64,000 nucleotides of DNA from Sphyrna mokarran (Eukaryota). The position numbers were made by a program, and so were the translations under genes. The notes under the pieces are model-generated. The model ran no database searches. It saw nothing but the letters and a program-made list of their open reading frames with translations, and was not told the DNA's origin. The stretch spans positions 51,336,001 to 51,400,000 of the forward strand of contig JAGIQG010000009.1 of assembly GCA_024679065.1 (NCBI GenBank), in the 5' to 3' direction. Shown here piece after piece: positions 27,805-63,860 of this stretch (positions are counted from its first letter, which is position 1; each line of letters opens with the position of its first letter).

Positions 27805-29000
27805 CCTCCTGTACTGGGTTTGCTGCTACACTGTTATGCTGCTCAACACTGGATTCATCATTATCCACTCAATGGCTCCAAACTGGATTTGCTCATGTGT
27901 TCCTGCGCTGCTCAATGGGGTTCACTGATCTTTTCCTTCACCGCTTCACACTAGAATCGCTACTCTCCTGGGTTCACCACTGTCTTCCTGCACTGCTTCA
28001 TAAAGATTTTTTAGTTCTCCTCCACCATTTCTGCACACAAGTTCTGGTGGCTCATCTGTGCTGGTTCACACTACAATTGCCACTCTTCTCCAGCATTGCT
28101 CCACATTGGGTAGGACAGTCCACCTCCTTCTACACTCTTTGAAATTCAGATCTTCACTCTCCTGCCGCATTGCTCCACACTGTTCGCCATCTATGCGCAC
28201 TGTTCAATTGGGATCACCGTACTCTGCCTGCACTGGTCTATGCTGGTTTCGTTTCTTTTCTCCTTCATTGCTTTACACTCTATTCATCCTTCTCATGCTT
28301 CCACTGTTCCAGACTGGATTTATCTATACCTCCTGCATTGCTCCATATTTGATTTACTGTATTCTTCTCACATTGCTCCACACTGGTTTCATTGCTTTTC
28401 TCCCGTGCTGCTCACACACGAGTCCATTGCTCTTTTGCTGTACCATTTGAAACTAGGTAGGTCAATAATGTCCTGTGTCACATTATATTAGGTTTGTAGT
28501 TCTCCTTCCACCTTACACCATACTGGGTTCACTGCTCTGATCCCGCATTGCTTCATACCAGGTTGCCAATTCCACCTGCGCTGCTAAACATTGCTTTCGC
28601 CGTACTCCTAACACATTGTTCTACACTGGGCTCACAAGTCTCACTGCTTCATATTCAATACATCTCTCTCCTCTTGTGCTGCTTTGCACTGGGTTGACTC
28701 CTGTCTTCCCACTCTGCTGCGTACTGATTTCTTCCTCTTCTGCTAGGCTGCTCCACTTCTGGGTTTGCTGTCATGCTCTCATGTTCTACCTTGGGATCAT
28801 CACTTATCTTCTTACTAACACACTATTGTACACTCGGATCAGTTCACTGGTTCCACATTGTGTTATACAAGTTTGCCCCCAGTCCATTCAAGTGGAGATT
28901 AAACACTCTCCACTTCTACTGTTCGTCATTAGGATCATCGTCTTCATCCTGGACTACTCCATATAAGGTTCACCACCCTCCTCCTGCACTGCTTCACACT
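27805..29000. repeat. 35-bp array block
   Basis: Periodic ctgctccacactggg variants; complete higher-order block. Confidence 0.85.
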
Positions 29001-29250
29001 TGCTACAACACTCAAAATAAGTTCTCAGGTGACAGAGCAATCCACTGTACAAGCTACAATCTCTATCATGTGTTGGGAAGATGGGGATTGAAGGGATGGG
29101 TGAGTAGGTGGAATGCTACACACTCTTTTTCCTGATACCACTTGACTTCCACATGCTCTCATGATGAGTATCAAGGTGTTCAGCTCCTTCTCAGATGCTT
29201 TTCATCTACTTCAGGCTGTCTTGGACATGGGATTCCCTGGTCATCACTGA
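29001..29250 (-). mobile_element. RTE 3' tip
   Basis: Homologous to 30421-30660. Confidence 0.75.
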
Positions 29251-30420
29251 TTTACCAATCTCCCATATCTCTCCACGCTGAGTTCATTCTTCCATCTCCT
29301 ACCCACACTCTTCTAACTGAGATCTCTGCTCTCCTCTCACGTCATACTGTATTTGCCATCGAGGCACACTGCTCAACTTGTTTCACAGTATCTGCCCACT
29401 CTGGGCCACACTGGTTGCACGGTGGTCCATATTGTGTTCAGCTTTCTTCTTTTCCACTGCTCCAGAATGGATTTATCATTCTCTTTCTGTACTGCTCCAT
29501 CTGCGATTTGACTCATTCTTCTCTCATTGCTCCATACTGGTTTCATCTCTCTTCTCCCGTGCTGCTTGCACTTGGTTCACTGCTCTCCAACTACACCATG
29601 GCAAACTTGGCTCATTTATGTCCTGAGTCACATTATATTGAGTTCTCAGGTCTCCTCCATACTTGGTTCACTCCTCTGCTCACACGATGCTTCATACTAG
29701 GTTGCTTATTTCAACAGTGCTGCTCCATACTGCTTTTGCCAACCTCCTTACACATTGTCCTATACTTGGTTCGCCACTCTCACTGCTTCACACTGAATTC
29801 AACGTTCCCCTCTTGCATTGCTCTGCACTGGGTTTGCTGCCATGCTCTCATCCTGTTCTACCCTGGGATCACCACTCATCTCCTTACTAGCATGGAATCA
29901 GCACTTTGATCCTGTGTTGCATTATACAAATTAGCTGTAATCCCCCCCCCCCCCACTTAGCTCAACACTCTGTCCCATCCTCATCCCGCAAAACTTCATA
30001 CTGGATTTTTCACCCTTCTCTTGCATTGCTCCAGACTAGGAATACAACTCTCTTCTCATGCTTCTGCACACTTACTTACAACATCAAAATAAGTTCTCAG
30101 ATGATGAAGCCGTCCAGTGCACAACCTACAAACTCCAACACAAGTGGAGTAGATGGGGTTGTTCTACCCTGGGATCTCCACTCACTTAATTATAAACACA
30201 CTGACGTACAGTGAAATGAGCTCTCTGGTCCCGCATTGTGTTATACAAGTTCATCACTAAACCCCCACTCCATTCAACACTCGATTAAACATTCTCCTCT
30301 CCCACTGCTCCTTACTAGGATCACCATCATCATCCTGTGCTACTCCATACTGGGTTTGCCACTCTTATCCTACATTGCTCCGCATTGGCGCTGCCACTCT
30401 TCTCCCACGCTTCTGCTTAC
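29251..30420. repeat. 35-bp array block with a short RTE tip (~30075-30155) and a locally duplicated terminal block
   Basis: Terminal block gttctaccctgggatc present at ~29855 and ~30160. Confidence 0.8.
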
Positions 30421-32344
30421 TTGCTACAATGCTCAAAATCAGTTCTCAGATGACAGAGCAGTCCAATGCTCGACCTAAAATCCCTATCACAGTTGGGGCA
30501 GATAGGAATTGGAGGTGTGAGTGGATTGCTACACACTACTTTCCCTAATGACTGATCACTTCTACTTACTCTCAGCGATGAAGAGCAAGGTGCTGAGCTC
30601 CTCCACAGATGCTTTTCATCCACTTCAGGCAGTCTTGGTCATGGAGTTCTCTGGTGTTGACTGGCTTGTTATAAGTTTTGCAAAGGTTTTAGGGATATAT
30701 CAAAGGTCCGATTATAGCATTTGTTTTGGGAGTCTCGTGTCAGACTGTGGCCCACCCAGCAGAGCTGATTCAGCATGTTCAATGCTTTGATGCTGGGGAT
30801 ATTGATCTGAAGTAGAACACTGATGTACGTGTGCCAATGCTGCCAATGGATTTGCAGGATATTGCAGAGGCATAGCCGGAGGTATTTCTCCAGGATTTTG
30901 AAATGCCTTCTGTACATGCCTGAGGAATTCATTACCAGAGGAAGTACTTGATGCCAAAACATTGAACATATTTAAGAAGCAGCTGGATATAGCACTTGGG
31001 GTGAATGGGATCAAAGGTTATGGGGAACAAGCAGGATTAGGCTATTGAGTTGGATGATCAGCCCATGATTGTAATGATTGGGCGGCACAGTAGCACACCG
31101 GTTAGCACTGCTGGGTTTGATTCCTGGCTTGGGTCACAGTCTGTGTGGAGTTGCACATTCTCCTCGTGTCTGTGTGGGTTTCTATCAGGTGCTCCGGTTT
31201 CCTCCCACAGTCCAAAGATGTGCAGGATAGGCTGATTGGCCATGCTTAAATTGCCCCTTAGTATCCTGGGATTAGTGGGTAAAATATATAGAGATATGGG
31301 GGTAGGGCCTGGGTGGTATTCAGTGGGCCAAATGGCTTCTCTCTGTACTGTAGAGTTTCTATGGTTTTATTTCTATGGATTGGTGGAGCAGGCTCGATGG
31401 GCTAAATGGCCTCCTTCTGCTGCTATCTCCTATCCATGTGTCCGAACCATATACATGGGCAGTAACACACTGTCCTGTCGATCATCAGCTTTGTGCTGGG
31501 TCTGAGTTCCTGATCTTCAAACACTTCTTCAGGTGACTGAAGGCTGTGCTGGCACACTGAGGACAAGGTTGAAGGTCACTGTTGTTGTCTACCCTTGTTG
31601 ACACTGTTTGATTCTGATAACCCGATGGGTGGGGGTTCATGTTTGTGTGACAAGAGCAGTTTGGAAAAGGATCTTGATCTTAGGAATATTTAGTGTAAGA
31701 CCAATACTCTCATACATCTTAGTGAAGGTGATGATGATGACTTGGAACTTGGCCTCCAAACATGCACAGACATAAGCATCGTTTGCATTATGTAATTCAA
31801 ATGACAGAGGACGGAATGACCTTGGATCAGGATGCTGAACAGATTCTTGTTTGATCTGTAATTTAGCTATTCTCTAATGGCAGCTTGCTCAGGATGAGAT
31901 GGAGAATTGCAGGAAGCAAGACTGAGAAGAGCACGATTGTCATAAAGTCAGAGTCATCAAGGTTTACAGCATGCAAACAGGTCCTTTGGCTCACCTTGTC
32001 CATGTTAACCTCTTTAGTAACCCCCAGTTACCTGCGTTTGGCCCATATCCCTTCATATCCATCTTATCCACGTAATTGTCTAAACGCTTTTTAAAAGACA
32101 TGATGACACAGAATTGTTTGATTCCATCCTGAAAATGAATTGGATCTGTGGTGGATTCATTGGTCAGGATCACAGCTTGCATGTCATTGTGGAGCAGGTG
32201 GAGAATGATGACAAATATTTGGAGCAGCTGAAACGGAGGAGAGTGCTCCATAATCCCTCGGGATTGACAATCTTATGATCTTTTATGAGATCAGATGAGG
32301 CCATGCACAAGGGTTTCTGCTGTTCTCTATCTTGTAGTTGCTGC
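30421..32344 (-). mobile_element. RTE 3' half (RT to C-terminal C2H2 finger) with nested insertions
   Basis: CPNCDRDFRSSIGLLCHLRT, LCNILQIHWQ..NIPSI, ILHLLHNDMQAVILTN motifs. Confidence 0.85.
30922..31440 (+). mobile_element. CR1 3' tail with a full-length HE1 SINE nested at 31080-31376
   Basis: CR1 tail split at atgatt/ggatt; SINE starts gggcggcacagtagcac and ends ttctatgg. Confidence 0.85.
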
Positions 32345-33500: not shown

Positions 33501-35308
33501 ATACTTAATAAGTTCTCAGGTGATGGAGAAGTCCAAGGACTTCTATTGTGTGCAGTTCCGGTCACCTCACTATAAGAAGGATGTGGAAACATTGGAAAGA
33601 GTGTAGAGAAGATTTACCAGGATGCTGCCTGGTTTGGAGGGTAGGTCTTATGAGGAAAGGTTGAGGGAGCTCGGGTTTTTCTCTTTAGGGTAGAAGAGGA
33701 TGAAAGGCAATTTAATAGAAGTTTATAAGATGATGAGGAGGATAGATAGAGTGGACATGCAGAGACTATTTCCTTGGGTAGATGTAGTTATTACTAGGGG
33801 GCACAATTATAAGATTCATGGTGGGAGATAATAAGGGGGATGTCTGAGATAGATTCTTTCTTCACAGAGTGGTTGTGGTGTGGATAGTGGAGTCAGATAT
33901 TTTAGGAACTTTCAAGCTGTTTATTGGATAGGCACATGGAACACACCAGAATGATAAGGAGTGGGATAGCTTAATTTTGAGTTTGAACATAGCTCGGCAC
34001 AACATCGAGGATCAAAGGACCTGTACTGTGCTGAACTGTTCTATGACCACCTACAATTTCTATTGCAAGTGGGGAAAATGAGGTTAGAGGAGTGGGTGGA
34101 TGGTTGGATTGCTCCATACTCCTTTCCCTGACAATCCTCAGCTTCCGTTTGCTCTCAATGATGAAGATCAAGGTGTTCAGCATGTGTTTTTCATCCAGTT
34201 CAGGCAGTCGTGGGCACTGGATTCCCTGATGGTGAGAATTTTGTAAGTTTTGAGGAAGTTTTCAGGATGTTCTTGATGCATTTTCTTTGCCCTCCTGGGG
34301 CTCGCTTGCTGTATTGAAGCTCCAAGCACAGCGTTTGCTTTGAGAGTCTCATGTCAGACATGTGGATGATGTGGCCTGCCCAGCAGAGCTGACTGAGTGC
34401 AATCAATGCCTCGATGCTGGGGATATTGATTTGAGCAAGAACACTGACTTTTGTGTGCATATGCAGATAATGGATTTGCAGGATGTTGCAGAGACAGCGC
34501 TGGTGGTACTTCTCCAGGGCTTTGTCTGCTGTTCGTAATCCACAGCTCCGAGCTACGTGCGTGCTAATACTACTGCACTGTATACATTGAGCTTTATGCT
34601 GGGTCTAAGTTCCTGATCTTCAATCACTTCCTCAGGTGACTGAAGGCTGTGTTGGCACACTGAAGGCAGTTTTAAAGCTCCTTGTTATTGTCTGCCCTTG
34701 TTGATAGTGGGTACCCAAGTTATGAAAAGTGGTCCACATTTGCCAAGGCTTGGTTATTGATGCTGATAATTGGTCGGGGTGGGACAGTTCTGTATGATGA
34801 GGGTGGGTTGGAAGAGGACCTTTGTCTCACTAATACTTAGTGTAACGCCCTTGCTCTCATCTGTCTTGGTGAAGGTGTTGATGATGGCTTGGATCTAGGC
34901 ATGCAATTGTGCACAGATGGCAGCATCATTTGCAATGTGTAGCTCAATGACAGAGGATGATCGACGTTCAATCAGGCCTATAAATATTTGATGCTGAACA
35001 GATTCTTGTTTGTTCTGTAATTTAACTACTCCAGTGGCAGCTTGCTTAGGATGAGGTGGAGCAATTTCAGGAAGTAAGATTAGGAAGAGTGTTAACAACA
35101 CAGAATTACGTGACCCCATTCCAAAAGTGAATTGGATCTATGATGGATCCATTGCTCATGATCAAGGGTCACATGTCATGGTGGAGCAAGTGGAAAATGG
35201 GAACAAGCTTTTGAGGAGCCGAAATGGAGGAGAGTGCACCATAATCCTGTAGGGTTGACATTGTTGAAGACTTTTATGAGATCAAAGAAGGCTATATACA
35301 ACGGTTGG
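33501..35308 (-). mobile_element. RTE 3' half
   Basis: QPLYIAFFDLIKVFNNVNP.GLW.TLLHFG; SVLAQINIPSIEALI..QLCWAGHIIHMSD.RL.KQ.L..EL..KRAPGGQRK. Confidence 0.9.
33541..34045 (+). mobile_element. CR1 3' fragment inserted in RTE tip
   Basis: YCVQFRSPHYKKDVETLERV; tail ctgtactgtgctg..ctgttctatg. Confidence 0.9.
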
Positions 35309-36064
35309 TCCTCCCACACTGCTTCACTCGTGCACTGCTCGACTGGGTTCCCTGCACTAGTCCACACTGGTTTCCTCACTCTCTTTCCACAATAGTCCAC
35401 ACTGTTTTCACCTCTTGCTTCTTCCATTGCTCCAGATTGGATTTATTGCTCTCCTCCTGTGCTGCAGATATTCGACTCAACGTGTTCCTTACATTGATCC
35501 ACTCTGGTTTCATTGTTCTTTCTTCATGCTGCTCGCATTGCTCCCATTGCTCTTCTACTGCACCACCCACATTATATTAAGTTTACAGGTCTCCTCCACA
35601 TCACTCCATAGTTGCTTCATGGCTCAGCTCCCACCATGCTTCATGATGGTTTGCCGAGTTCATCCCCGCTGCTCCGCACTGCTTTCACTATCCTCCTAAT
35701 GTTGTTCTACGCCTGGTTCGTCAAACTTGCTGCTCCATACAGGGTTCATTAATCCTCGCTTGTGTTGCTCCACACTGTTGCTTGCTATTGTCCTCTCGTG
35801 CTGTTCTATTCTGGGGTGATAACTCACCTCCTTACCAACATAACACACTATTGTATACTGGGAACAGCTCTCTGGTACCCGTTGCGTTATTCAACTTTAT
35901 TGCCACACACCCCACTCCACTCAACACTCAATTTAACGCTCTCCTCTCCCACTGTTCCTCAGTAAGATCACTGTCCTCATTCCATGTTATTCCGTACTGG
36001 GTTTGCTACATGTCTCCTGCTCTGTTCCACACTGAGTATCAGCTCTTCCCCACATTTCTCTGCA
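35309..36064. repeat. 35-bp array block (partial)
   Basis: Middle and terminal higher-order blocks present. Confidence 0.85.
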
Positions 36065-36435
36065 CTTGCTACAACATTCAAATGAAATTTGCAGATGACA
36101 GAGCAGTCCATTGGCAACCTACAGTCTATCACAGGTGAAGAAGATGGAGATTTGGAAGATTGGGTAAGTGGGTGGACTGCTACATGTTCCTTTCCTGACA
36201 CCACTCAGCTTCCACTTGCTCTCAGTGATGAAGATCAATGTGTTCAGCTCCTTCTTTGAGCCATACAAGAGGGTGGTAACACTTCCACCCCACAATGACC
36301 TCTATTCTGGGACTGAGTTCCTGATCTTCGAACACTTCCTCAGACACCAGAAGAATGTGCTAGCATATTGAAGACAGTATTGAAGCTTGTTGTTGCTGTC
36401 TGTGCTTGTTAACAGTGTGCCTCCAAGGTATGAAG
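36065..36435 (-). mobile_element. RTE 3' fragment, internally deleted
   Basis: Homology to neighbouring RTE copies. Confidence 0.75.
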
Positions 36436-37725
36436 AGCATACTGAGTTTGTTGTTATCCACCCACATGGCTCCCCATTGGTTTTGGTGCTCTGCTCCTAT
36501 GCTGCTCAACAGGGTTCACCAATCTCCTCCAGCACTGCTGCACACTGGGATCACTGCTGTCCTCATGCACTGCTCCATATTGAGTTCACCACTCTCCTAC
36601 TACTCTGTTCCCCTGGGTTCACCAATGTCCTTCCACACTGTTACACAAAAGTTTTGTCACTTACCACCTGAGTTGCTGCATGCAGGTTTTGTTCCTTTCA
36701 TCCTGTGTTGCTTCACACGGGGTTCATCAGTCCAACTCCTCCCACTCTCTTCTAAATCTAAATCTCCACTCTCGTTCCGCGCTGCTCCATACTGGGTTTG
36801 CCATCTATGCGCACTACTTTACTGGGTTCACCGGACTCTACTGGGCCACGCTAGTTTTGTCACTATCCTCCCGCAATGGTCCATACTGCATTTACCTTTA
36901 TCCTACTGCACTGCTCCACACTATTTTCGTCTTTCTCCTCCTCCACTGCTCCAGACTGGATTTATCACTCTCCTCTTGCACTGCTCCATATACAATTCAC
37001 CGTACGTCTCTTGCATTGCTCCACACTGGTTTCATTGCTTTTCTCCTGTGCTATTCTTATTGGGTTCATTGGTCCACTACTGAATTACTTGCAATTGGGC
37101 TCATTCTTTATGTCCTGCTTCACATTATATTGTGTTCAAAGCACTCCTCCCGCATCACTCCGCACTGCTTTCATCGTTCTGCACCCACAATACTTCATAG
37201 TAGGTTGCTCATTCTACCCTCACTGCTCTACACTATTTTGGCCAACCCCCTAACACATTGTTTGACACTTGGGTCACCAATCTTGCTGCTCCATGCTGGA
37301 TTCATCCCTCACTCCTCTTGTGCTGCTTCACGCTGCATTGACCGCTGTCCTCCTGTTCTTCACTATACTTATTTCCTTCCTCTTGCACTACACCACTTCA
37401 GACTAGGTTCAGTTTTCCTTTCTTGCACTGCTTCACATTGGGTTTGCTGCCATTCTTTCATGCCATGCTGTACTGGGATCATTGCTCACTTCCTTACTAA
37501 CACAATGTTATTAACTGGGATTAGCTGTCTGGTCCCACGTTACATGATTCGTCACTGCTAAAACCTTCCCATTCTGCTCAATATTCGGTTGAGTGCTCTC
37601 CACTCCCACTGTTTCTCAATAGAATCTCCTTCCTCATCCCGCAATACTCCATATAGGGTTTGCCACACTCCTCCTGTGCTACCTACACTGGGCATGTCAC
37701 TTCCCTCCCACACTTCTCCATACTT
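36436..37725. repeat. 35-bp array block
   Basis: Near-complete higher-order block. Confidence 0.85.
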
Positions 37726-39010
37726 CCTATAACATTCAAAATAAGTTCTCAGATGATGGAACAGTCCACAAGATACAAGCTGCATCACAAGTAGAGCAAG
37801 CAGGGATTGGAGGAGTAGGTGAATGTGTTGATTGCTATGCACTCCTTTCCCTGATAACACTTGGTTTCTGCTTGCTCTTGGTATTCAGGTCCTTCTCAAA
37901 TGCTTTTCATTCATTTCAGATGGTTTTGGGCAGTTGACTTCCTGGTGTTGTTGGGGGTTTTGCGGAGGTCTTGAGGCTGTTCTTGCTGCAATTTCTCTGC
38001 TCTCTTGGGTCTCATTTGTTGTATTGGAGCTCTGAGTACAACATTTGCTTTGGGAGTGTTGTGTCAGACACATGGACAATGTGACCAGCCCAACAGAGCT
38101 GACTCAGCATAGACAATGCTTTGATGCTAGAAATATTGACCTGACCAAGAGCACTGATGTTGGTGTACCTATGCTGCCCACGGATTTGCAAGACCTTGCA
38201 GAGTCAGCGCTGCTGTTACCTCTCCAGGGTTTAAGTTGCCTGCAGTATAAAGTCCATTCTCTGAGCCATACAAAAGGGTTGTAACACATAGTCCTGGAGA
38301 CCATGAGCTTTGTGCTGGCTCTTGAGTTCCTGATCTTCAAACATTTCTTCAGATGACTGAAGGACAGGGTTGAAGCTCATTGTTGTCTGCCGTTGTTGAT
38401 AGTGGGCTCCTAATGTATAGAAAAAGTCCATATTTACCAATGCCTTGTTGCCTATTTTAATAATTCGGGGGGCAATTCTGTGGCGAGGGCAGGTTTGCCT
38501 TATAGATATTTAGTGTAAGGGCCATATTCCCATACGTCTTGAAGGAGTTGAAGATGGCTTGGATCTTGGCAATCAATTACATGAGCATCATCTGCATAAC
38601 GTAGTTCCATGCAGCTGATGAGATGAGCTTGGATCAGGGCTGTACATATTGGCTGCTAAATAGATTCCTGGTTGTTCTGTAATTTACTTCGATTCCAGTG
38701 GAGCTTGCTGAGGGTGAAACGGAGGGTGAGTTGCAGGAAACAAGATCGAGAAATGCGGTGGTATGATGACACAGAGTACATGACCCCATTCCGAAAGTGA
38801 GTTGGTTCTGTGGTGGATCCATTAATCAGGATTACAGATGTGTTGTGGAGCACATGGAGAATGGTGACAGACTTTTGGAGCAGCTAAAACAGAGGGTTTA
38901 TGAGCTAAATAATCCATCAGGGTTGACATTGTTGAGGGCAATTAAGTGAGATCAAAGAAGGTCATGTAGAAGGGTTGATTCTGCTCTCTGTATTTCTCTT
39001 GCAGTTGCTG
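37726..39010 (-). mobile_element. RTE 3' half
   Basis: VILINGSTTEPTHFRNGV; FEDQELKSQHK; both shared junctions present. Confidence 0.88.
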
Positions 39011-40630
39011 TTGGATATAATTACTGACCCATACTGTTCCATCCTAGGCTGCTATACTGCTGTGCTTATAGTTCATCATGATCCTTCCACGTGGCTCCAA
39101 ACTGGGTTCAGCGCACTCCTCTTGCATTACTCCATGGGGTTCACTGGTGTCCTCCTGTGCTGCTCAACACTGGGTTCATCACTGTCTTCCCACACTGCTA
39201 CATGAAGTTTTCTTCATTCTTCTCCCAGGCTGCTACACAGAGGTATCGTTCCCCTCATCTTGTCCTGCTCCTTGCTGAGTCACCACTCTTCTCCCGCACT
39301 GTTCCATGCTGAGTTCTTCACTCTCCTGGCACAGAGCTCCACAGTTTGATTTGACCTTTCACTTCCTCCAATATTCTTCTAAACTGGCATCTCCGCTCAC
39401 CTCCCATGCTGCTCCGTATTGGGTTTGCCTTCCATGCACACTGCTTTACTGGGTTCATCACACTGTCTACACTAGGCCACACTGGTTTCCCTACTCTTCT
39501 GCTGTGCTGCTCCACACTGGGTTCAGTACTCTCTTCCTGCACTGCTCCACTCTGGGTTTGCTGCTATACTGCTGCGCTGCACAAAACTGGGCTCATCGCC
39601 CTGCCCCTGTGCTGCTCAGCAGGGTTCACTAATCTCTTTCTGTGTTGTGCCCACTGGGTTCACTGCTCCTTACTACACTCCACCCCTGGGTTCACCACTG
39701 TCTTCCTGCACTGCAACAGAAAGATTTCATTCCCCTATTCCCCTGCTACTGTATGCAGGTTTTGTTCATCTCATCTTGCGCTGCTTCAAACTAGGATCAC
39801 TATTCATGCACACTGCTTGAATGGGTTCATCACACTCTGTCTACACTAACTTCATCACTCTGCTCTGACGATGGTCCACATTGTTTTCATCTCTTTTCTC
39901 CTCCACTGATCCAAACTGGATTTATCAATCTTCTCCTGCGCTGCTCCATATTCAACTCATCATACTCTCCTGCATTGCTCCATGTTGGTTTCATCGCTCT
40001 TCTCCCACACTGAGTTCAATGCTCTCCTGCAGCACCACTTCGAATAGGATCATTGTTTATGTTCTGTGTCACACTATATTGAGTTTACAGTTCTTCTCCC
40101 ACATCACTCCATGCTGGGTTCTCTACCTTGCTCCCGCATTGATTCATATTGGGTTGCTGATTGGACCATGTTGATGCACACTACTTTCACCATCCTTCTA
40201 ACACATTGTTCTATACTTGGTTCACCAATCTCGCTGCTCCAGACTAAATTCATGGATACATCTCCCTTCTCTCTTGCAGCTCCATAATGGGTTGACTGCT
40301 GTCCTCCCACTCTGCTGCATTCTAGTTTCCTTCCCCTTCTGCTGCTCAGCTGCACTCTGGGTTCACTGCTTCCCTTTTGCACTGCTCCACACTGGGATTG
40401 CCAGTCTTTTCATGCTGTTCTACCTTGCAATCACCACCTATCTCCTTATTAACACATAGTTGTACACTGAGATCAGCATTACATTATACAAGTTTGTCGC
40501 TAAACCTCCCATTCCACTCAACACTCTGTTAAATTCCCAACTTTCCCAATGCTCCTCGTTAGGATTACTGTCCTCATCCCGCGCTACTTCATATTGGGTT
40601 TGCCACTCTTCTGCTGCGCTTCTCCACATT
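39011..40630. repeat. 35-bp array block with internal duplication of the start block
   Basis: Start block ctggg(t)ttgctgctatactgctg at ~39043 and again at ~39552. Confidence 0.85.
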
Positions 40631-41150: not shown

Positions 41151-41159
41151 GGTGTTTAC

Positions 41160-42215: not shown

Positions 42216-42224
42216 TGACCTCTA

Positions 42225-50504: not shown

Positions 50505-53180
50505 GGCTACAACACTCAAGATAAGTTCTTGAGTACCAACAATCTCTACGATAGGTGGGGGAATGAGATTGATGGAGCAGGTGGATTGCTAGCGCTCCTT
50601 TCCCTGATAACGCTCCACTTCCGCTTGTTCTAGGCGATGAAGATCAAGATGTTCAGCTCCTTCTTGGATGCTTTTCATCCACTTCAGGCAGTCATTCCCT
50701 AGCATGGGTGGGATGTTGTACATTTTGAGAAAGTTTTAAGGATGTGCTTGATGTATTTTCTCTGCCCTTCTGGAGTTTGCTTGCTGTATCGAAGCTCCAA
50801 GCACAGCGTTTAGGAATCTTGTGTCAGATATATAAACGTGTGGCCAATCCAGCAGAGCTGACTCAGCATGATCAATGCTTCGATGCTGGGGATCTGCTCA
50901 GATCGTGCGTGGACCAGTTGGCAGGGGTATTCGCAGTCATCTTTAACCTTTAATCCCCCATTATATCAATCTGAGGACCCTATCTGCTTCAAGAAGATAA
51001 CCACCATCCCTGTACTAAAGAAAAGCCAGAAAACATGCCTTAATGACTATCATCCAGTTGCTCTGACACTCTAACATCCATGATTAAGAAGTGCTTTGAA
51101 AGGTTACTCATGGCATGAATTAATTCTGAGCTCCCAGATTACATGGATTCACTACAGTTCGCCTACAGGTCCACAGCTGGCACCATCTCCCTGGCCCTAC
51201 ACTCAACCCTGGAACACCTGGATAGCAAAGGCACTTATGTCAGACTCCTAATTATTGACTACAGTTCAGCCTTCAACATCATTATTCCTACAAAATCCAT
51301 CTCCATCTAGATCCTAGACTTCCTAACCCACAGACCACAATCAGTATAGATAGGCAACAACTCCTCCTTCATGATCACCCTCAACACTGATGCTCCACAA
51401 AGTTGTGTCCTCAGCCCCTTATTATACTCCTTATACACCCATGACTGTGTGGCCAAATTCCACTCCAACTTGATTTTCAAATTTGCCAATGACACCACGA
51501 TAGTAGGTCAAATTTCCAACAATGATGAGGCAGAGTACAGGAAAAAGAGAGAAAATGTGAACTGATGCAATGACAAAGTCAGCAGAACGAAGCAGATAGT
51601 CATCAACTTCAGGAATGTAGTGGAGGACATACCTGGGTCTACATCAATGAGGATGAAGTGGAAATGGTCGAGAGTTTCAAGTTTCTAGGTACCAAGATCA
51701 TAAATAACCTGTCCTGATCCCTCCACACCAACGCTATAGTTAAAAAAGCTCATCTACACCTATACTTTCTCAGGAAGCTATGGAAATTTGGCAAGTCCAC
51801 TACGACTCTCACCAACTTTTACAGCTGCACAATAGAAAGCTTTCTTTCTGGTTATATCACAGCTTGGGATGGCTCCTGCTCTGCCCAAGACTGCAAGAAA
51901 CTACTAAGGGTCATGAACAAAACCCAGTCCATCACGCACAGCAGCCTCTCATCCATTGACTGTCTACATTTCCCGCTGCCTCAGAAAAACAGCTGGTATA
52001 ATCAAGGACCCCACACATCCCAGACATTCTCTCTTTCACTTTCTTCTATCGAGAAAAAGAGATATGTCTGACATCACATACCAACTGGTCACAGAACAAT
52101 TTTTTCCCTGTTGCCATCAGATTTTCAATGGACCTATCAAATATTAAGTTAATTTTTCTCAACACCCTAGCTTTGACTGTGACACCATATTCTCCTTTCC
52201 TTCTCCATGTAGGATATGTTTTAGCCATATAGCATGCAAGAAACAATACTTCTCACAGTATAATAATGTGACAAAAATAAATCAAATCAAATATTGACCT
52301 GAGCAAACCCACTGATATTGGTGTGCATTTGTTGCCAATAGATTTGCAGGGTCTTGCAGAAGCAGTGCTTCTAATACCTTTTCAGGGTTTTGAGGTGTCT
52401 GCTGTATGCAGGCTACATCTCTGATCCATACAGCAGGATGGTAACACTACTGTCCTGTTGTCTATGAGCTTTGGATCAGAGTTTGTGATCTTAAAAGACT
52501 TCCTCGGGTTGGTACTCTGAAGGCAGTGTTCCTGTCAGCCCTTGTTAATACTGAGCTCCCAAGTTATGGAAAGTAGTTCACATTTTCCAAGGCCTTGTTG
52601 TTAAATTTTCATAACCAGTAGGGGGAAGTTCTGCATGACAAGGGCAGATTGGAAGAGCACCATTGTCTTATAGATATGGAGTGTAAGGCCCATGCTCTCC
52701 TACATCTTGATGAAAGTGTTGATAATGGCTTGGAGGTTGGCTTGCAATTGCACAAGCATTATTTGTATTATGTAGTTCAGTGAAAGATGATTCGATGACC
52801 TTGATCAGAGCTGCACGTACTGGATGCTGAAGATTCTTGTTTGTTCTTTAATTTAGCTCTAGTCAAGCAGCAGATTGTTCAGGGTAAGACAGAGCATTGC
52901 AGGAAGCAAGATTGAGAAAAGCATTGGTGTGATGACACACAATTGCATAACTCCATTCCGAAAGTGAATTCAATCTGTGATGGATTCGTTGGTCAGAATC
53001 AGGGCTTGCATTTCATTGTGGAGCAGATGGAAAATGGTGGTAAACATTTTGGGGCAGCCAAAACAGAGGAGAGTGCTCCATAATCCCTCGGGGTTGACAA
53101 AGTTGAAGGCTTCTGTGAGATCAATGAAGGCCATGTCCAAGGTTGGTGCTGTTCCCTGAATTTCTCTTGCGGCTGCTTGG
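50505..53180 (-). mobile_element. RTE 3' half split by a Rex1/Babar insertion
   Basis: QEKFREQHQP at the 5' junction; RTE sequence gatgctggggat|attgacctgag resumes after the insert. Confidence 0.88.
50894..52290 (+). mobile_element. Rex1/Babar LINE, 5'-truncated, decayed RT
   Basis: LRSCVDQLAGVFAVIFNL, CFKKITTIPVLKK..CLNDYHPVALT, APQSCVLSPLLYSLYTHDC..IFKFANDTTIVG; (aatca)n tail. Confidence 0.9.
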
Positions 53181-54590
53181 TGTAGTGCGCCTCCTGCACT
53201 GGTCTACTCTGAGTTTGCTGCTATACTGCAGCGTTTCTCAGCATTGGGTTTGTAATTATCCACCCACATGGCTCCACTCTGGGTCTAGCGCTCTCCTCCT
53301 GCACTGTTGAACGTGGTTCACCTATCTCCTCCTGCACTGGACCACATTGGGATTGCCGCCCTCCTTGCGCGCTGCTCCACATTGGGTTCACCAGTCACCT
53401 CCTGCACTGAATACTTGAGTTCTGAGTGGTCTGCATTCCTGCTCTGCACTGAGATCGCCAATCACTTTCTGCATTGCTCAATACTGCGTTTACCAAACTC
53501 CTCCCATACTGCCAATTGTTCAGGTTTGATGCAGGTTTGTTCCTTTCATCCTCTGCTGCTCCATACTGAGTTCACCCTTCCACTTGCTTGCCACTCTCCT
53601 CCTGCACTCCTCCATATTAGGTACACCATTCATGCACCACACTGTGCCTGCACTGGGCCACACTGATTTCGTCATTCTCCTCTCCCAGTGGTCCACACTG
53701 TGTTCACTTCTCTGTTCCTCTATTGTTCCACACCGTTTTCACCTCTTTCCTCCTTCACTGCTCTAGACAGAATCATAGAATCCTTACATTGCACAAGAAG
53801 GCCATTTGGCCCATCAAGACTGCACCAACCATTATCCCATCCAGGACCCATTCTCATTACCCCACATATTTACCTTGCTAATCCCCTGACACTAGGGTCA
53901 ATTTAGCAAGGCCAATCAACCTAACCCACACACCTGTGGGAGGAAACCAGAGCACCTGGAGGAAATCCATACAAACACAGGAAGAATGTGCAAGCTCTAC
54001 ACAGTGTCCCAAGGCTGAAATTGAACCTGGATCCTTGGCACTGTGAGGCAGCAATGTTAATCACTGTGTTGCCTTTATTTATAACAACATCAAGTTTTAT
54101 CACTCTCCATTTAGATCCTCCACATACCTCTTGCTGCTCATATTGGGTCCATTGCTCTCCAACTGCAGCACTTGAAACAGGGCTCGTCAATTGCGTCCTG
54201 TATTATATTGAATTTTCACTTTTATCTCACATCACTCCATACTGGTTCACTGCTCAGCCTTCACGTTGCTTCATACTAAGTTGCCAAATACAACCTGTGC
54301 TGCTTCAAACTGCTTTCGCTGTCCTCCTAACACACTGATTTATATTTGGTTCACCAATCTCGCTGCTCCATACTGGATTAATCTCTCTCCTCTCATACTG
54401 CTCCACGCCGGATTTACCTCTGACCTTCCACTTTGCTCCATATTGGTTTCCTCCGTCACTGGGTTTATTGCTCTCCTACTGTACCACTCAAAACTGGACT
54501 CACTGTTTACATCCGACATCACATACATTAAGTTCACAGCTCTTCTCCCGCATCACTCCATATAGGGTTCACTGGTCTCCACAGCAACTC
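53181..54590. repeat. 35-bp array block lying between the RTE 3' and 5' halves
   Basis: Start and middle blocks present, terminal block absent. Confidence 0.85.
53768..54073 (-). mobile_element. HE1-type V-SINE in array
   Basis: Same block as 14387-14700. Confidence 0.85.
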
Positions 54591-54639
54591 CATTGCAAAT
54601 CTGGAAAGAACACTTCAACCACAAGGAAAACACAATTAA

Positions 54640-56100
54640 TGTGGATTTTTGCGATGTCCACATGTGGATAGCATGCTGCAAGATGGAATTGAGGACACTT
54701 GCGTAGAAAACAGAGTCTATGTTGAAGATCCTTTGAAATGTTCCTTCTAGCAGATGCTGACTGCCTCTTTATTCCTAATGAGCACCTCTCCATGTTTGGT
54801 CAGCAGTGGGGTGGCACTCTGGGTGTTTGGGCTGTAGACGATCTTGATTGCGTTAAAGATACCTCACTCATAATGGTTGTTGATGAATATTGAATATCTT
54901 GAGTTTTCTCCATCTATTCTGCAGTTTGTGGAGTTTTGCTGAACCTCAGCCTTCAGCTGTCTGTAAAACTACTTTCTTGCTCTAGAGTTGTGCTGGTGTT
55001 TCAGGTTCAGAACTGTGGCTTATCAGCTCCGAGCTCTCCCAGTTATTCCCACCAAACCAGTGTTGCTGTTTCTGGCCTTGAAAGCAGACCAAGGCTGGGA
55101 CATTCTGCATATCTGGGTCACTGGGCACCAGCTGAATAGGACTGCCTTATTGGGGTCTTTAGTGTCTCAGTGTTGATTTTCCTGCAACATTGTTTGTGTT
55201 ACTGCGACTGCTTTGGGGTTACATTGATATTGATATTGATGAGAGCAGATTGACAGTGATCATCCAGTTAATTGCCAATTCCAGTCATAGTGCAGATGAT
55301 AAGCATGTCGTTGTATTCTCTCACTCAAACACTGATGTAATTGAAAGGTGACAGTGCTGGGAGGGTGTTATCTCACTGATGGAACACAGTATTGATTGAT
55401 CCAGGGGCATTTTCTTCAGGAGCAGGATAACACTCACGTTGGATTTCCCAGAGCCACTTTCTATCACTTACACCTTGCAGAGGTCTCTGTCCTTTCCAAC
55501 TCATCGTGTCATTCCCCAAGCAGGATTGTCTTGTCACCCATTGCAATGAACGATTCTTTAAGGGTGCAGTAAAATTCCTCTTTGGACTGTTCTGTAGATT
55601 TGAGTGATGGAGCATACATGCTCATGACTGCAGAGTACAGATTCTGGGATAAGGTGGGCTATAGGGCCATGAGGCATTTGTTTATCTTGCAGGAGTCTCA
55701 GAGACAGCCAATGAGTTTGTTTTTAATGGCAAAGCTAATTTCACGAAGACGTGAACTTCTTCTGATTTACCTTTCCAGAAGGTGATGTAACCTTGTTCCT
55801 TGAGCTGGCCTTCTCCTGCTCGCTGGGTCTCACTTAGGGCAATGATGTTAATGTTTAAGAGCTTAAGATCGTAAGTTAAGATGTCACAACACCATTCTGG
55901 TCTGTTAATGTTGGGTTGTCCATGACAGCCAGGACATTCCAGGTCCTGGGCTTCATTTTAAGGGCTGGATGAAGCCTGTGTGAGAATTATCTTAACAAGT
56001 GTGACCAATTTTCACCAGATACCACATAGGCTTGACGGAGCAAAGCCTTGGTCAAGTTATAAGCAAGTCCAATAGGACTAGAGATCCAGCTCTGCTATAA
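54640..56100 (-). mobile_element. RTE 5' half: 5'UTR, APE endonuclease and linker (decayed)
   Basis: ATG at 55956: MKPRTWNVLAVMDNP; then LNINIIALSETQRAGEGQLKEQG, FWKGKSEE..ISFAIKNKL, INTVFHQ; linker AIKIVYSPNTQSATPLLTKHGEVLIRNKEAVSIC*KEHF. Confidence 0.85.
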
Positions 56101-56239
56101 AGGGCCTAGGACATGCAAACACACATATTCCATCTTTCTTCTTCTCCTTCCAACAGGACACCCCTCCCCAGGATTTATGAATTGCAGCTCATGAGGATAG
56201 CTTTGGCTGTGGGCCCATTTGGAAAAATTCAATTGCATT

Positions 56240-57604
56240 CAGCCTCAGCACTGTTTTAAACTAGGTTCGCTGCTCTTGTCCCACATTGCTTCACACTGGG
56301 TTTGCCACTGTACTTTCTATTTTATTTTGGATTCACTGTTTCCTCCTGTACTGAGTTTACTGCTCCTCTTTTGTGTTGCTCCACACTGAGTACACTGCTT
56401 TTCACCCATTACCCTCCACACTCATTCCGTTGCCCTCATAACATATTGCCAAAATCCGTGTTAAGAACAATCTCCTCCTCCGCTGCTCCAGACTAGATTC
56501 ATTTCTTTCCATCCTTGCTGGCTCACACAAGGCTCATCATCATCATCCCACACAGCTCCAAACAGTGAATGCCACATAATTCCCGCACCGCTGCACACTG
56601 GGTACACTGCTCTCATCCTGTACTGCTCCACACTGGATTCTTTGTTCTTCTCCTGCACTGCTCACTAGCCTCCTCCAACACTGCTGTGCTCACTCCTGTC
56701 TTCTACATCTGCTCCACACTGGATTCAACACCCTAATCCATTGCTGTTCTACCAGGGGATCATGGCTCTTTTCTTGCACTGCTGTCCTCCTGTGCTGCTC
56801 CACATGGTTCACCAGCCTTTGCTTGCACATGTCCACATTGGTCTTCTTTTGTGATGCTCACACTGGTTTCATCATTCTACTACTGCACCACTCCAAACTG
56901 CTTCATCATTCACATCCTGCATTGCATTATATTGGCTTCGCAGCTCTCCTCCAGCAGCACACCATGCTGACTTCAACACACTCCTACCACACTACTTTGT
57001 ACGGAGTTCGCTATATCCTTCCACGCTTCTCCATAATCAATACACCACTCTCCTCCAGTGCTGCTCCACACTGCGTTCACCCCCATACTAGATTCACCAT
57101 TCTCCTAACATGTTGTTCCACACTGAGCTTGCCAATCTCATCCTCTGCTGCTCCTCACTGGGTTCACCTCTTTCCTCTTGTGCTGATTTACATTGAGTTC
57201 ACTGTTCTCTATCACGCTGTTTTAAACTGCATTAACTGCTGTCCTTCTGATCTGCTGTACCAGTTTCCTTCCTCTCCTGATGTGCTGCTCCGTACTGGGT
57301 TCAATGCACTTCACTCAACAGTGCTGTATGTTGGGTTCACTGCCTTCCTCTCATGTTCTTCTATCTTGCAGTTGCTGCACCGCCTCTGCCCTACCCCACA
57401 TCACAGTGCCACACACTAGGCTCACTCCAACACTGAGCTCCTCCCACACTGCTGCATACTGGCTCACCATGTTCCTCCCACACTGTTCTATACTGGATTC
57501 AGTGCGATCATGCGTTGACCATTGTCCACCTGCTCTGTTCCACATTGCTTCCTCCATCTGACACTGCTGCATACTGGGTTCACCATATTCCCACACTGTC
57601 CCAC
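56240..57604. repeat. 35-bp array block (variant order)
   Basis: Periodic ctgctccacactgg; lacks the usual terminal block. Confidence 0.85.
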
Positions 57605-58865
57605 ACTTAGCACAACACTCAAAAATTAGTTCTTAGGTGACGGAGCAGTTTAATGCACAAACTACAATTTCTATCACAGGTGGGGCAGATAGAGATTGGA
57701 GGTATGCATGGATTGCTACATGCTACTTTCCCGTTGACACTTTGCTTCTGCTTGCTCTTGGCGATGAAGATCAAGATGCTCTGCTCCTTCTCAGGTACTT
57801 TTCATCCACTTCAGATGAACTTGGGCATGAGACTTCCTGTTGTCAGTGGGGATGTTGTACATTTTCAGGATATTCTTAATGCATTTGCTCTGCCCTTCTA
57901 GGATTTGACTGCTGCATTGAAGCTCTGAGTACAGCAATTGCTTTAGGAGTGTTGTGTCCAAACAATGGTGATGTAGCAAGCCCAGCAGAGCTGACTCAAC
58001 ATGATCAATGTTTCAATGCTAGGGATATTGTACTGAGCAAGGACACTGATTTTGGTGTGCCTATTCTGCCAATGGATCTGCAGGATCTTGCGGAAGCAGC
58101 GCTGGTGGTTCTTCTCCAGGTTTTTGACATGCCTGCTGTACATAGCCCACATTGTTGAGCCCCATAGGACGCAGAGTTTCTCTACTACACTCTAGATCAT
58201 GAGTTTTGTGCCATATCTGAGGTCCTGATCTTCAAACATTTCCTCAGGAGACAGAAAGCTGTGCTGGCACAGTGAAGACAGTGTTCAAGCACATTGTCAA
58301 TGTCTCCCTTTTTTGACAGTAGTCTCTCAGGTATGTTGATTTTGTTAACCATTGCAGGGAGCAGTTCTGTGTCATGAGAGTAGGTTGGAAGAGGACCTTT
58401 GTCTTATGGACATTTATTTTAAGGCCTATGTAGCCTTCAATTGTGCACAGACATAAGCATCATTCATTTTATGTAGTTCAATGACAGAGGTTGGCAGCCT
58501 TGGATCAGGTGTTCATGTGCTGAATGCTGAACAGATCGTTGTTTGTGCTGTATTTTCACTCTCTTCTACTGGCAGCTTGCAGAGGGTGAAATGAAGCATT
58601 GCAGGAAGAAAGATTGAAGAGAGTTGGTGTGATGATACAGAATTGCTTGATCCCATTCCAAAAGTGAATTGGATTTGTGGTGGATCCAGTGGTCAGGATC
58701 ACAATTTACTTGTCATTGTGGAGCAGGCAGAGAATGGTGACAAACTTTCGAGGCAGCCAAAATGGTGGAGAATCTTCAAAATCCCTCAGGGTTGAATAAT
58801 GTGGGGTCAAAGCAGGCCATGCACAAGAGTTGATGCTGTTTGCTGCATTTCTCTTGTAGTTGCCA
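57605..58865 (-). mobile_element. RTE 3' half
   Basis: WAMYSRHVKNLEKNHQRCFRKILQIHWQNRHTKISVLAQYNIPSIETLI..QLCWA; both junctions. Confidence 0.9.
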
Positions 58866-62125: not shown

Positions 62126-62490
62126 GCCACTCTACGTAGGTTTCACCTCTCTCCTCTTGTGTTGATCCACACCGGGTCTGCCTCTCCCCTGCCACACTGA
62201 TGTACATTGAGTTCACTGCTCTCTATCACACTGCCCCATACTGCATTGACTGCTCTCCTCACGCTCTGCTCCATACTGATGTCCTCCCTTTCCTGACATG
62301 CTGCTCCAAATTGGGTTCAATGCTCTCCTATTGCATTACTCCACAGTGAGTTCACCAACTTCTTCTCACACTCTTTGAACTTGCAATCACTGCTCCCGCA
62401 TCTGCACTCGTTCACATCTCACGTGCTGCTGGAATACTGGGTTCACCGCGCATACTGGTTCACTGCCATCCTCCTGAGCTGTATACTTGG

Positions 62491-63049
62491 TGCCACACTC
62501 AAAAGTAAGTTCTCAAGTGATGGAGCAGTCCAATGCACAACCTACAATCTCTGTTATAGGTGCAGCCAATAGGGATTGGAGGGGGAGTGGGTGGATTGCT
62601 ATGTGCTCCTTTCCATGTCAATGCTTCACTTCCACTTGCTCTTGATGATTAAGATCAAGGTGCTTAGCTTATTCTCAGATGTTTTTCCTCCACTTGAGGC
62701 ATTCTGAGGTTGAACAGATTCTTGTTTGCTCTGTAATTTACCTGCAGTCCAGCTGCAGTTTGCTCAGGATGAGGTAGAGCATTGCAGGAAGTAAGTTTGA
62801 GAAGAGCGTTGTTGTGATTACACAGAACTGTTTCACTCCTTTCAGAAAGTGAATTGGATTGTGATGGATCTATTGGTCAGGATCACAATTTGCATGTTAT
62901 TGTGGAGCAGGTGAAGAATGGTGACAAACTGAAATGGAGCAGAGTGCTCTATAATCTCTCAGGATTGATAACGTTAAAGGCTTTTGTGAGATCAAAGAAG
63001 GCCACGTACAAGCTTGGTGCTGTTTCCTGCATTTCTCTTGTAGTTTTTC
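62491..63049 (-). mobile_element. RTE 3' half, internally deleted
   Basis: KLQEKCRKQHQ at the junction; 3' tip present. Confidence 0.85.
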
Positions 63050-63860
63050 TGTGGAGTTGCTTGCAACGCACTGCTCCACCTTGGATTTGTCGCTATACCG
63101 CTGCACTGCTCGACACTGTTCACCACTCAACTCTTGCGCTGCTCCAGAAAAGGTTTGTCACTCTCATCCCACACTGCTCTTACTGGGTCGGCCATCCCGG
63201 CGCACTGCTCGACTGGGTTCACCGTATTCTGCCTGCACTGGGCCACACCAGTTATGTTGTTTTCCTCAGTGGTTGCTCACATTGTTTTCACCTCTCTCTT
63301 CTTCCACTGCAACATAATGGAGTGTTGCTCTGCTCCAGCGCTGCTCCATATTCGGTTCAATTGAGCACTCTCACTGCGCTATTTCAAATTGAGCTCGTCA
63401 TTCACATCTTGCATTGTGTTATATTGAGTTTGCAGCACTCCCATGTCACTCCATACCAGATTCCCCATTCTGCTCCCGCACTGCTTTTTCTTCGGTGGCC
63501 ATTTTCTCCGGCGCTAATCTCACTGGGTTCGCACCTCACCACCCCCACCCCTCGCTGTTGTACATTGGGATCGCCGCTTTCCTCCCAAGCTGCTCCAATA
63601 TGGGTTCGCCCTCCTCGCACACTGTTACAGCGGGTTCACCGCACTTTGCTTTCATTGTTCCATACTGGTTTCATTGCTCTCCTATGTTGCTGCTCACTGG
63701 GCTCACCTTTTTCCTCCTGCCCTGTTCCATGCTGAGTGCATCGCCGTCTTCCTGTATTGCTGCATGCCGAGGTCACCGTTCTCCTACGCTGCTCCATGGT
63801 GGATGCATGGCTGTTCTCATGCGTTGTTTCATGGTGAGTTCACTGCTGTCCTCCTACACT
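63050..63860. repeat. 35-bp array block
   Basis: Start and middle blocks. Confidence 0.85.

Follow-up and report, generated by a model that had tools for sequence, protein, structure and literature searches.

Sphyrna mokarran carries about 35 decayed copies of an RTE LINE, arranged head to tail at two chromosomal sites, and these arrays are probably a chain of one RTE lineage that grew from a single founder through amplification as DNA. The array unit consists of an expanded 5′ head and the RTE 3′ half, which an internal deletion has brought together (J1, linking the head with RT aa ~596), with a tail-to-head joint (J2) between successive units.

Array architecture and genomic context

The first array, locus A, begins in the window, by which we mean the whole 64,000-nt stretch of DNA analyzed. 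RTE blocks on the minus strand alternate with 35-bp blocks from 27,797 to ~68,770 (extended coordinates), and the right end, C1548:51,404,769, is 4.8 kb beyond the window end. The composite array of more than 36 kb reported in a preliminary description is real, and its coordinates, architecture, and counts hold; locus A comprises the following features.

27,797–64,000, on to extended position 68,769 (−): locus A macrosatellite, head-to-tail RTE derivatives, 88% under head, RTE, or junction profiles
27,797–29,025 (−): leftmost head block, a degenerate 35-bp array of ~1.2 kb that starts flush with the J1 position, with no adjoining RTE body
29,018–29,241 (−): A01, RTE 3′ end copy, J2 present and J1 deleted
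30,439–32,341 (−): A02, RTE 3′ half from J2 to J1, with interruptions at 30,918–31,419 and 31,934–32,093
33,505–35,330 (−): A03, RTE 3′ half, J2 split by a younger insertion (33,514–34,030)
36,086–36,437 (−): A04, RTE copy with deletions internally and across J1
37,742–39,008 (−): A05, RTE 3′ half, complete from J2 to J1
40,653–41,170 (−): A06, short RTE copy, J1 deleted
42,220–43,270 (−): A07, RTE 3′ half, J1 present and J2 deleted
44,462–45,960 (−): A08, fragmented RTE copy with partial J1 and an inverted RTE piece at 44,824–44,909
46,491–47,605 (−): A09, RTE 3′ half, groups with locus B copies
48,129–49,420 (−): A10, RTE 3′ half, groups with locus B copies
50,534–53,175 (−): A11, RTE 3′ half with a younger 1.4-kb insertion at 50,894–52,290
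54,590–56,270 (−): RTE 5′ half (5′ UTR, APE endonuclease, and linker, aa ~5–520), running into a 35-bp head like dispersed copies
56,270–57,631 (−): long-type unit head block, bounded by the 5′ UTR and by the A12 J2 joint and more degenerate than the heads to its left
57,626–58,863 (−): A12, RTE 3′ half, early-branching copy
62,506–63,045 (−): A13, RTE copy with J2 and J1 present and the middle deleted

The stretches between RTE copies of locus A measure 0.28–1.69 kb, with two longer ones of 3.64 and 4.45 kb (0.5–1.6 kb, once 3.6 kb, in the preliminary description); the 1.7-kb RTE 5′ half inside the 4.45-kb stretch had been missed. This 5′ half (54,590–56,270) survives from the long founder unit. 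Large younger insertions are mostly private to one unit, but two (61.2–61.7 kb and 67.4–67.8 kb) are also in locus B. An Rfam scan of 27,000–64,000 gave 0 matches.

The array is not confined to one locus: a second array, locus B, of 57 kb lies on another chromosome (C738), with a flanking block in common with locus A. Among the best 30–40 candidates scored per search, matches spanning J1 or J2 were confined to C1548 and C738, and there were no dispersed solo units among the best candidates of the genome queries. Both arrays are interstitial, at 51.4 of 113.9 Mb (locus A) and 19.3 of 58.6 Mb (locus B). Locus A has a PGM exon on one side and an Alg6_Alg8 gene on the other; locus B is flanked by an RBD-FIP gene and by an exon of a two-pore K+ channel. 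These neighbors fit the human gene orders PGM1–ALG6 and KCNK18–RAB11FIP2, and so neither locus looks like a fusion. A PF10296 search for synteny at locus B gave no match, and an ohnologous relationship between the loci was rejected, the second PGM-like gene being on C1215 and not on C738. Locus A is 15 kb upstream of the PGM first exon, a placement that may be incidental.

Loci A and B share a defined block (2.6 kb colinear at 69%, plus common interruptions) within unrelated outer flanks, and a neighboring 34-bp satellite is also arrayed within 200 kb of the ends of contigs C982 and C749. These features would suit transport inside a giant DNA transposon or Helitron, or else the remains of a subtelomere or of a chromosome fusion, but such an origin is highly improbable: comparison of the block ends, although erosion and younger insertions have obscured both, revealed neither inverted nor direct terminal repeats; a motif of Helitron type lies close to 2 of 8 J1 and 0 of 7 J2 joints, with no consensus; no telomeric dimers are present in the 264 kb examined; and the gene neighbors are unlike those of a fusion. 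The chance that misassembly explains the array is negligible. It is repetitive, and read depth is 16–22 over 40–45 kb of locus B compared with 11–14 adjacent, but the units are ~28–30% apart with private indels, and independently assembled contigs of run X1 (possibly the source data) cover multi-junction stretches with 0–1 differences, including 0 differences across the junctions in, for example, 37,017–41,791. A single sequencing run, perhaps the source itself, is listed as containing this DNA; neither an RNA run nor another species is on that list, which bears neither way.

The source element

The array maps onto a 1,056-aa APE-RT protein, with the RT break at aa ~596 and a QxQEKxxEQ motif at aa 600. 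A profile of five open RTE pieces matches P0010 (1,056 aa) and P0011 (1,092 aa), both containing PF03372 and PF00078, and these proteins place aa 5–520 and 596–1048 onto the array. A single ORF of ~1,000–1,100 aa with APE endonuclease and RT is in keeping with the RTE clade, as is the short 3′ UTR, dispersed copies ending in a conserved hairpin-forming stretch of ~30 nt followed by (AAG)n. No match is itself named RTE, and the source element is presumably an RTE from its domain build and motifs. Pfam recovered 0 families with 10 open RTE pieces, a homologue search with a single piece found one mis-annotated shark protein only, no PDB sequence matched at E below 0.3, and the U units had no tblastn match to a CR1 RT protein.

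The 35-bp repeat and the RTE 5′ head

Autocorrelation of 5-mers in the window peaks at 35, 70, and 105 bp (451, 247, and 179, respectively, versus a median of 73), and an anchor motif of the 35-bp repeat has 187 matches, compared with a mean of 1.8 and a maximum of 6 in 20 shuffles; there are 0 matches in bases 1–27,800. TRF with default weights reports a single 35-bp array (44,107–44,197) because monomer identity to the majority sequence is ~72%. Homology of the 35-bp blocks extends from unit to unit for ~1.1 kb, and the array was therefore correctly described as higher-order. An exact 22-mer pattern had one match genome-wide and was useless for counting arrays.

Dispersed RTE copies of the same family carry 1–5 of the 35-bp monomers at the 5′ end. 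Among 18 dispersed 5′ ends, picked by their likeness to the array and not randomly, 9 have a tandem period of 25–35 bp, and in 6 of the 18 so chosen the array 35-mer beats at least 199 of 200 shuffles. Three copies (L068, L069, and L076) have a linker and monomer register in common with the long-type copies of the array; among the three copies bearing a 35-bp head, L069 is the one whose 3′ flank was located so as to exclude target-site DNA. In the 3′ flank of another copy, L067, the 34-mer scored 0/200, which counts against the repeat being a head. The four RTE 5′ ends inside the arrays are on the same strand and form one clade (99/97), and head type does not follow the 394-column 5′ UTR tree. 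To judge from these sequence comparisons, the 35-bp repeat is the RTE family's own 5′-terminal head rather than a foreign array or an extension of the 3′ end; the 3′ extension envisaged earlier conflicts with the monomers at the 5′ ends of dispersed copies. Because the repeat would then belong to the front of the element itself, the array likely grew from one founder copied as DNA and not through successive retrotransposition. The idea that one chimeric unit was amplified as DNA survives in its ancestral unit and DNA-level route, but the unit is not an RTE fragment joined to an unrelated array.

Repeats of this kind are also found free, as 35-bp arrays at L033–L037 and as 34-bp arrays on C982, C749, and C1326. 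Direct alignment of free 35-bp and 34-bp monomers is equaled by 48 of 500 shuffles, and the dispersed head L032 matches both. There is no RTE 5′ UTR beside the free arrays in L033–L039, L048–L050, L054, and L055.

Relationships among units

A phylogeny of 29 array 3′ halves and 10 dispersed copies, a check proposed at the outset, places the array on one branch (99/98). Identities are 0.724 within locus A, 0.714 between loci, and 0.716 within locus B, compared with 0.656–0.672 between array and dispersed copies, and thus concerted evolution within the arrays is not apparent. The array tree is star-like with short inner branches, 14 of 36 being open; locus labels are clustered, yet neither locus forms one clade, and A09 and A10 fall inside the B group (97/90). 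With divergence of ~0.35–0.39 K2P, the array is old and was not homogenized, as first thought. A rate of 7e-10 per generation, from an excerpt of PMC10587355, is unsuited to calibrating its age. In locus B, B03, B05, and B07 alternate with B04, B06, and B08, derived deletions are common to alternate units, and identities of 83–91% among B03–B08 reflect DNA-level block duplication. The arrays have the kilobase head-to-tail units, with junctions in common and one founder, that typify a TE-derived satellite or macrosatellite.

Joints between and within units

The joints recur across units as the preliminary description had proposed. The window contains 13 J2 joints (a younger insertion interrupts one), corresponding to the 13 units noted as having the same fusion at the ORF end, and nine complete and one partial J1 at aa ~596, corresponding to the 10 units that break at one RT position. 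Over both loci, the last ~30 nt and the family's tail are absent from 30/30 J2 joints, in line with the earlier report of no simple-repeat or poly(A) tail; the head side of J2 lies at model position ≥1090 of 1123 in 24/30. J1 abuts head position ≤10 in 18/21 full copies and has a 10-nt microhomology at its site. Fifteen short copies abut head positions 12–849, only one at ≤12, and therefore are deletions across J1 rather than 5′ truncations; these apart, both sides of J1 and J2 are fixed. At the left end of both loci the expected 3′-most RTE with an intact tail is absent. The left end of locus A stops flush with J1, and both observations count against the single-founder reading.

The RTE 3′ UTR aligns with the head monomer over 13–15 nt right at J2, and the J2 data are compatible alike with a joint within one element and with a double insertion, in which a second RTE primed in its 3′ UTR entered the head of an earlier one and the tail-less dimer so formed expanded by unequal exchange. 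Drosophila TE tandem dimers arise by double insertion and have common junction deletions after expansion, according to part of PMC5932611, although most Drosophila non-LTR tandems described there keep an intact 3′ end. We regard double insertion as unlikely, since neither a target-site remnant at J2 nor an intact terminal element is present at either locus, and there is one clade of 3′ halves and one of 5′ ends, although two copies of one young subfamily would give the same picture. This scenario differs from amplification of a single-element founder only in the origin of J2.

HeT-A/TART chains lie at chromosome ends and consist of copies with an intact 3′ end and a 5′ truncation that varies. 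The shark arrays are likewise unidirectional, head-to-tail, and non-LTR, but their two joints are fixed and the 3′ end is truncated; neither a fixed 3′ end with variable 5′ truncation nor a chromosome-end position is seen. That units arose via RNA, as a self-targeting chain (HeT-A/TART- or Zepp-like) or by rolling-circle reverse transcription of circular RTE RNA, is quite improbable. The radiation is star-like and places A09 and A10 among locus B copies, which fits such a chain, and a star tree is equally expected from a retrotransposing master; the unit also keeps the 5′ head, a likely promoter, and its head-plus-3′-part build is that of non-autonomous RTEs in sections of PMC5786205. Conversely, the 3′ hairpin and tail are gone, whereas stringent LINEs recognize 3′ ends (PMC3747384, in part), and no dispersed solo unit was found among the best candidates genome-wide. 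The common head was already internally diverged before amplification, and the short copies, varying on both sides of J1 as deletions would, argue against the HeT-A/TART-like alternative raised previously.

A model for array formation

DNA-level amplification of a single founder could have proceeded as follows. A full-length RTE with a 35-bp head would have been the founder, its head growing to ~1.2 kb and diverging. Intra-element recombination or circle formation may then have joined the 3′ UTR, through its near-match to the head monomer, to the head, creating J2 with loss of the terminal hairpin and short-repeat tail. The resulting long unit (~4.5 kb) would have been duplicated in tandem, and one copy would have lost ~2.2 kb at the J1 microhomology. 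This J1 unit of ~2.5 kb presumably overtook in a fast burst of unequal exchange or rolling-circle copying, early in which the array and neighboring block (50–75 kb) would have been duplicated to the second chromosome. Both array copies would have grown away from the common end and then frozen, gaining deletions and insertions. The array is likely inert today.

We also entertain, with a low chance of being right, a broader proposal in which the RTE family has swappable 5′ tandem-repeat heads (29-, 34/35-, and 35-bp) that seed minisatellites and some chromosome-end arrays; one head monomer would mimic the element's own 3′ UTR so that the element closes LTR-like, and the arrays would be concatemers of a circle (DNA or RNA) delivered to two chromosomes.

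Comparison with known systems

The preliminary description knew of no equivalent, and none matches exactly, but LINE-derived satellites and head-to-tail LINE arrays are known kinds (PMC9659126 and PMC5932611, in part). LINE-derived satellites covered in portions of PMC9659126 include the cetacean common satellite (L1 3′ part), the chicken HinfI repeat (CR1 3′ UTR and partial ORF2), and PROsat (L1 ORF2). As there, the tandem unit holds a LINE 3′ part including part of the ORF; unlike them, the unit is otherwise made up of the 5′ head of that very element, expanded, and so is a whole, internally deleted element, and the ~35 copies at two interstitial sites are not homogenized while a long precursor survives. 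Neither 'RTE' nor 'shark' has a whole-word match in the available text of that review.

Drosophila R1 and Bari1 arrays, as excerpted from PMC5932611, are similarly head to tail, with one junction deletion copied throughout and later internal deletions and insertions, but the shark array is dead, vertebrate, and ~0.35–0.39 K2P apart, with no TSD in the joint, no rDNA-type target, and a cut 3′ end. The bipartite RTEs RTESINE1/2, MAR4, WALLSI3, and Bov-A/Bov-A2 (PMC5786205, in part) also join a 5′ end and 3′ part by internal deletion; they are dispersed and keep the extreme 3′ end with tail, whereas the array unit has an intact 3′ end with tail at 0/30 J2 joints, lacks a non-repeat 5′ UTR, and is tandem only, with no dispersed copies bearing target-site duplications among the best 30–40 candidates. 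Internal short tandem arrays of retroelements expand and also occur free in Lathyrus sativus LTR-retrotransposon-derived satellites (PMC7004042) and squamate SINE-derived satellites (PMC10702118), from the parts of these reports consulted; here the source is instead the 5′ head of a LINE, which once expanded was amplified along with the element. Human D4Z4 (4q and 10q), on a partial account, is likewise a kilobase unit with retrotransposed sequence on two chromosomes, but it is subtelomeric, with near-identical units coding for DUX4, whereas the shark array is interstitial, diverged, and non-coding. The literature searched, which lies outside subscription papers and Repbase/Dfam, holds no precedent for a route from a LINE 5′ end to a satellite.

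Two dispersed minisatellite families of this genome are linked to RTE 5′ heads. The array is a readable record of the passage from LINE to macrosatellite, with precursor, deleted derivative, burst, second chromosome, block duplications, and arrest; because it stopped before homogenizing, shark orthologues can test models of satellite birth.

Architecture of the array

The array in the window (locus A) begins at 27,797, from where LINE fragments on the minus strand are interleaved with blocks of a decayed 35-bp repeat; this alternation extends 4.8 kb beyond the window end (positions past that end, in continued numbering, are termed extended).

G000:C1548:51,336,001-51,400,000, window
Window 12,708-12,956, minus strand, first exon of PGM_PMM_I
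G000:C1548:51,332,606-51,332,845, minus strand, second exon-1-like PGM copy, 59% identity, 16 kb downstream of the first
Window 18,902-26,834, provirus-like remnant with a direct-repeat pair 78% identical

The 35-bp periodicity is far above chance, with autocorrelation peaks of 451, 247, and 179 at 35, 70, and 105 (median 73), and with 187 matches to a 35-bp anchor motif compared with no more than 6 in any shuffle. A single ~1.1-kb sequence, common to the units, makes up the 35-bp blocks, and the joint counts of the preliminary description are borne out: in the window, the RT break (J1) occurs in nine complete and one partial instances, and the ORF-end joint (J2) in 13. Contigs of sequencing run X1 match the array across several joints with 0 differences, which offers protection from assembler error alone, as X1 may be the source data. 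A short inverted RTE piece lies inside copy A08 (window 44,824-44,909), and a 1.37-kb AT-rich insertion within the array (L001:1,067-2,432; extended 65,067-66,432) is without a match among the loci searched; its ends resemble inverted repeats by eye, and it is possibly a DNA transposon.

Outside the array, the two PGM exon-1 copies are likely alternative first exons of PGM1, and a 55-bp tandem repeat of 4.5 copies (13,266-13,516) lies immediately upstream of the PGM exon. Decayed frames in the provirus-like remnant match no Pfam family, although we take them to resemble env and integrase; a young CR1-like insert (~21,410-22,325) lies inside the remnant. An open frame of 132 aa with a coiled-coil look (10,772-11,167, plus strand; no Pfam match) is possibly a LINE ORF1 remnant.

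The 35-bp repeat as the probable 5′ head of the element

A profile built from five stop-free array pieces gave 13 protein matches, none of which is named RTE. They include two APE-RT proteins with a single ORF (1,056 and 1,092 aa), as well as sawshark proteins, mis-annotated, that are 58-69% identical; from these matches we infer an RTE-type LINE and a host that is a shark. The common array fragment spans aa ~596 to the C-terminal finger. In dispersed copies of the family, the sequence continues through the J1 position, and the 3′ end is a conserved ~30-nt hairpin-forming stretch followed by an (AAG)n tail. This end is missing at all 30 J2 copies in both arrays, 28 of which pass directly into 35-bp monomers, with two split by insertions. 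A tblastn search located an APE domain at 55.5-55.9 kb of the window, and there are four array 5′ ends.

Window 54,590-56,270, same strand as the 3′ halves, RTE 5′ half
A at extended 64.4 kb, B at 27.7 kb and B at 79.1 kb, three further array 5′ ends

We examined 18 dispersed 5′ ends (16 of 24 non-self matches, plus L031 and L032). Nine of the 18 have a tandem period of 25-35 bp, and the array 35-mer scores above at least 199 of 200 shuffles in six. Monomers number ~5 in L076, ~2 in L068, and one in L069, with the same linker as in array copies; remaining heads include a 29-bp type and one resembling the 34-bp satellite. The 3′ end was located for five of the 18, and the 35-mer is in the flank of none of these (L069 alone among the five has a 35-bp head, and the L075 flank is short); in the L067 3′ flank the 34-mer score is low but above shuffles. 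The 35-bp array is therefore best read as the element's own head. The preliminary description had taken the unit as an RTE 3′ half that runs on into the array; the polarity is the reverse, and in element sense the order is head, deletion J1, and RT 3′ half, with J2 joining tail to head. The RTE 3′ UTR resembles the monomer over 13-15 nt right at J2, and a 10-nt repeat is present on either side of J1.

Tandem heads at the 5′ end fall into three or more types across the family (L066-L081, L031, and L032), among them 29 bp, 34/35 bp (second-satellite type), and 35 bp. The sister copies L067 and L032 bear different heads, which suggests head swapping. Free 35-bp minisatellite arrays (33 bp in L035) occur at dispersed sites L033-L037, some of them young (93-96% to their majority), and no RTE 5′ UTR was found beside them.

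A second locus with a shared flank

Junction and head queries found one cluster besides A, locus B, among the best 30-40 candidates scored, where lone copies could escape.

C738:19.255-19.312 Mb, locus B, 21 RTE copies in 57 kb
G000:C738:19,255,457-19,330,200 (L011-L019), 57-kb array of the same unit as A, then U units, then a 16.6-kb 34-bp-based satellite
L001:4,770-L002:2,100 (extended 68,770-76,100), second composite tandem of U unit and 34-bp satellite, present three times at A and twice at B

On one side, both loci end in a common block that comprises a remnant of an RTE, a pair of U units of ~700 bp each, and the 34-bp-based second satellite, colinear and 69% identical over 2.6 kb; interruptions common to A and B are also found deeper in the arrays. 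The outer flanks, compared between A and B, show no relation. U is a fragment of an old, unclassified dispersed repeat (L041-L047), near full length only at A and B among the loci found. The B-side satellite has a ~0.8-0.9-kb higher-order period and one copy spaced at 2.5 kb with 90% identity. Other 34-bp arrays lie at L048-L050 (C982; 85-86% matches), L055 (C749), and L054 (C1326), those on C982 and C749 <200 kb from contig ends; L053:1,638-2,532 is an unrelated 23-bp minisatellite of ~41 copies.

Locus A is flanked by the PGM exon and, at a distance of ~190 kb, by an Alg6_Alg8 gene; the neighbours of B are a two-pore K+ channel exon and, ~600 kb from the array, an RBD-FIP gene. An open 306-aa exon with two Ion_trans_2 matches (L020:7,420-8,337, minus strand) is presumably KCNK18-like. 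Compared with human gene order, each site falls inside a conserved block, and the two do not form a paralogous pair.

A single founder and probable growth at the DNA level

Array 3′ halves form one branch relative to dispersed copies, with support of 99/98 (29 versus 10 rows; rows with <700 filled columns or without pairing left out), and in a tree of 22 5′ ends the four array 5′ ends form one branch (99/97), within which A64.4 and B79.1 pair; the arrays thus have a single founder. Pairwise identity is flat, at 0.724 for A-A (87 pairs), 0.714 for A-B (270), and 0.716 for B-B (187). Locus labels are clustered on the 3′-half tree (four changes versus 10-13 when shuffled), and A09 and A10 group with B copies. 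The earliest-branching copies are those closest to the shared end, and head blocks near that end are the most decayed (0.67-0.73 versus 0.77-0.86).

The alternate units B03, B05, and B07 have one deletion in common, and with B04, B06, and B08 identity is 83-91%; duplication of a two-unit block as DNA is therefore the sole explanation. Among copies reaching J1, 18 of 21 adjoin head position ≤10, whereas 15 shorter copies adjoin positions 12-849, and these are therefore deletions across J1 and not 5′ truncations. The head side of J2 is fixed in 24 of 30.

Proposed history and age

Family heads, fixed joints, a single founder, two loci, and block duplications are what the data show. From these we propose that the head expanded, that the element was then joined end to end, and that the long unit so formed was duplicated before the J1 unit took over; an early transfer to the second site, likelier from A than from B, would have been followed by arrest. 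Limiting or standing against this history, the tree has short inner branches, an intact terminal element is present at neither locus, head type is at odds with the short 5′ UTR tree, and the left end of A is flush with J1, which the history leaves unexplained. Pairwise K2P among array copies (0.34-0.39) is near the 0.40 measured among dispersed copies and exceeds roughly twofold the 0.16 of the direct-repeat pair to the left of the array; the burst therefore followed soon upon the family's active period. An uncalibrated guess puts the array at the order of 10^8 years.

Comparison with known systems

The preliminary description had raised a HeT-A/TART-like alternative, and the array does not behave as such a chain. 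Searches of published papers yielded no description of this array, nor of any shark RTE that bears tandem repeats as 5′ heads. A bipartite RTE (PMC5786205) is built similarly to the array unit but differs in 3′ end and dispersal, and TE-derived satellites (PMC9659126, PMC12628747, PMC5932611) are alike in working and in structure, although the array lacks their concerted evolution. The array is real and is explained in outline.
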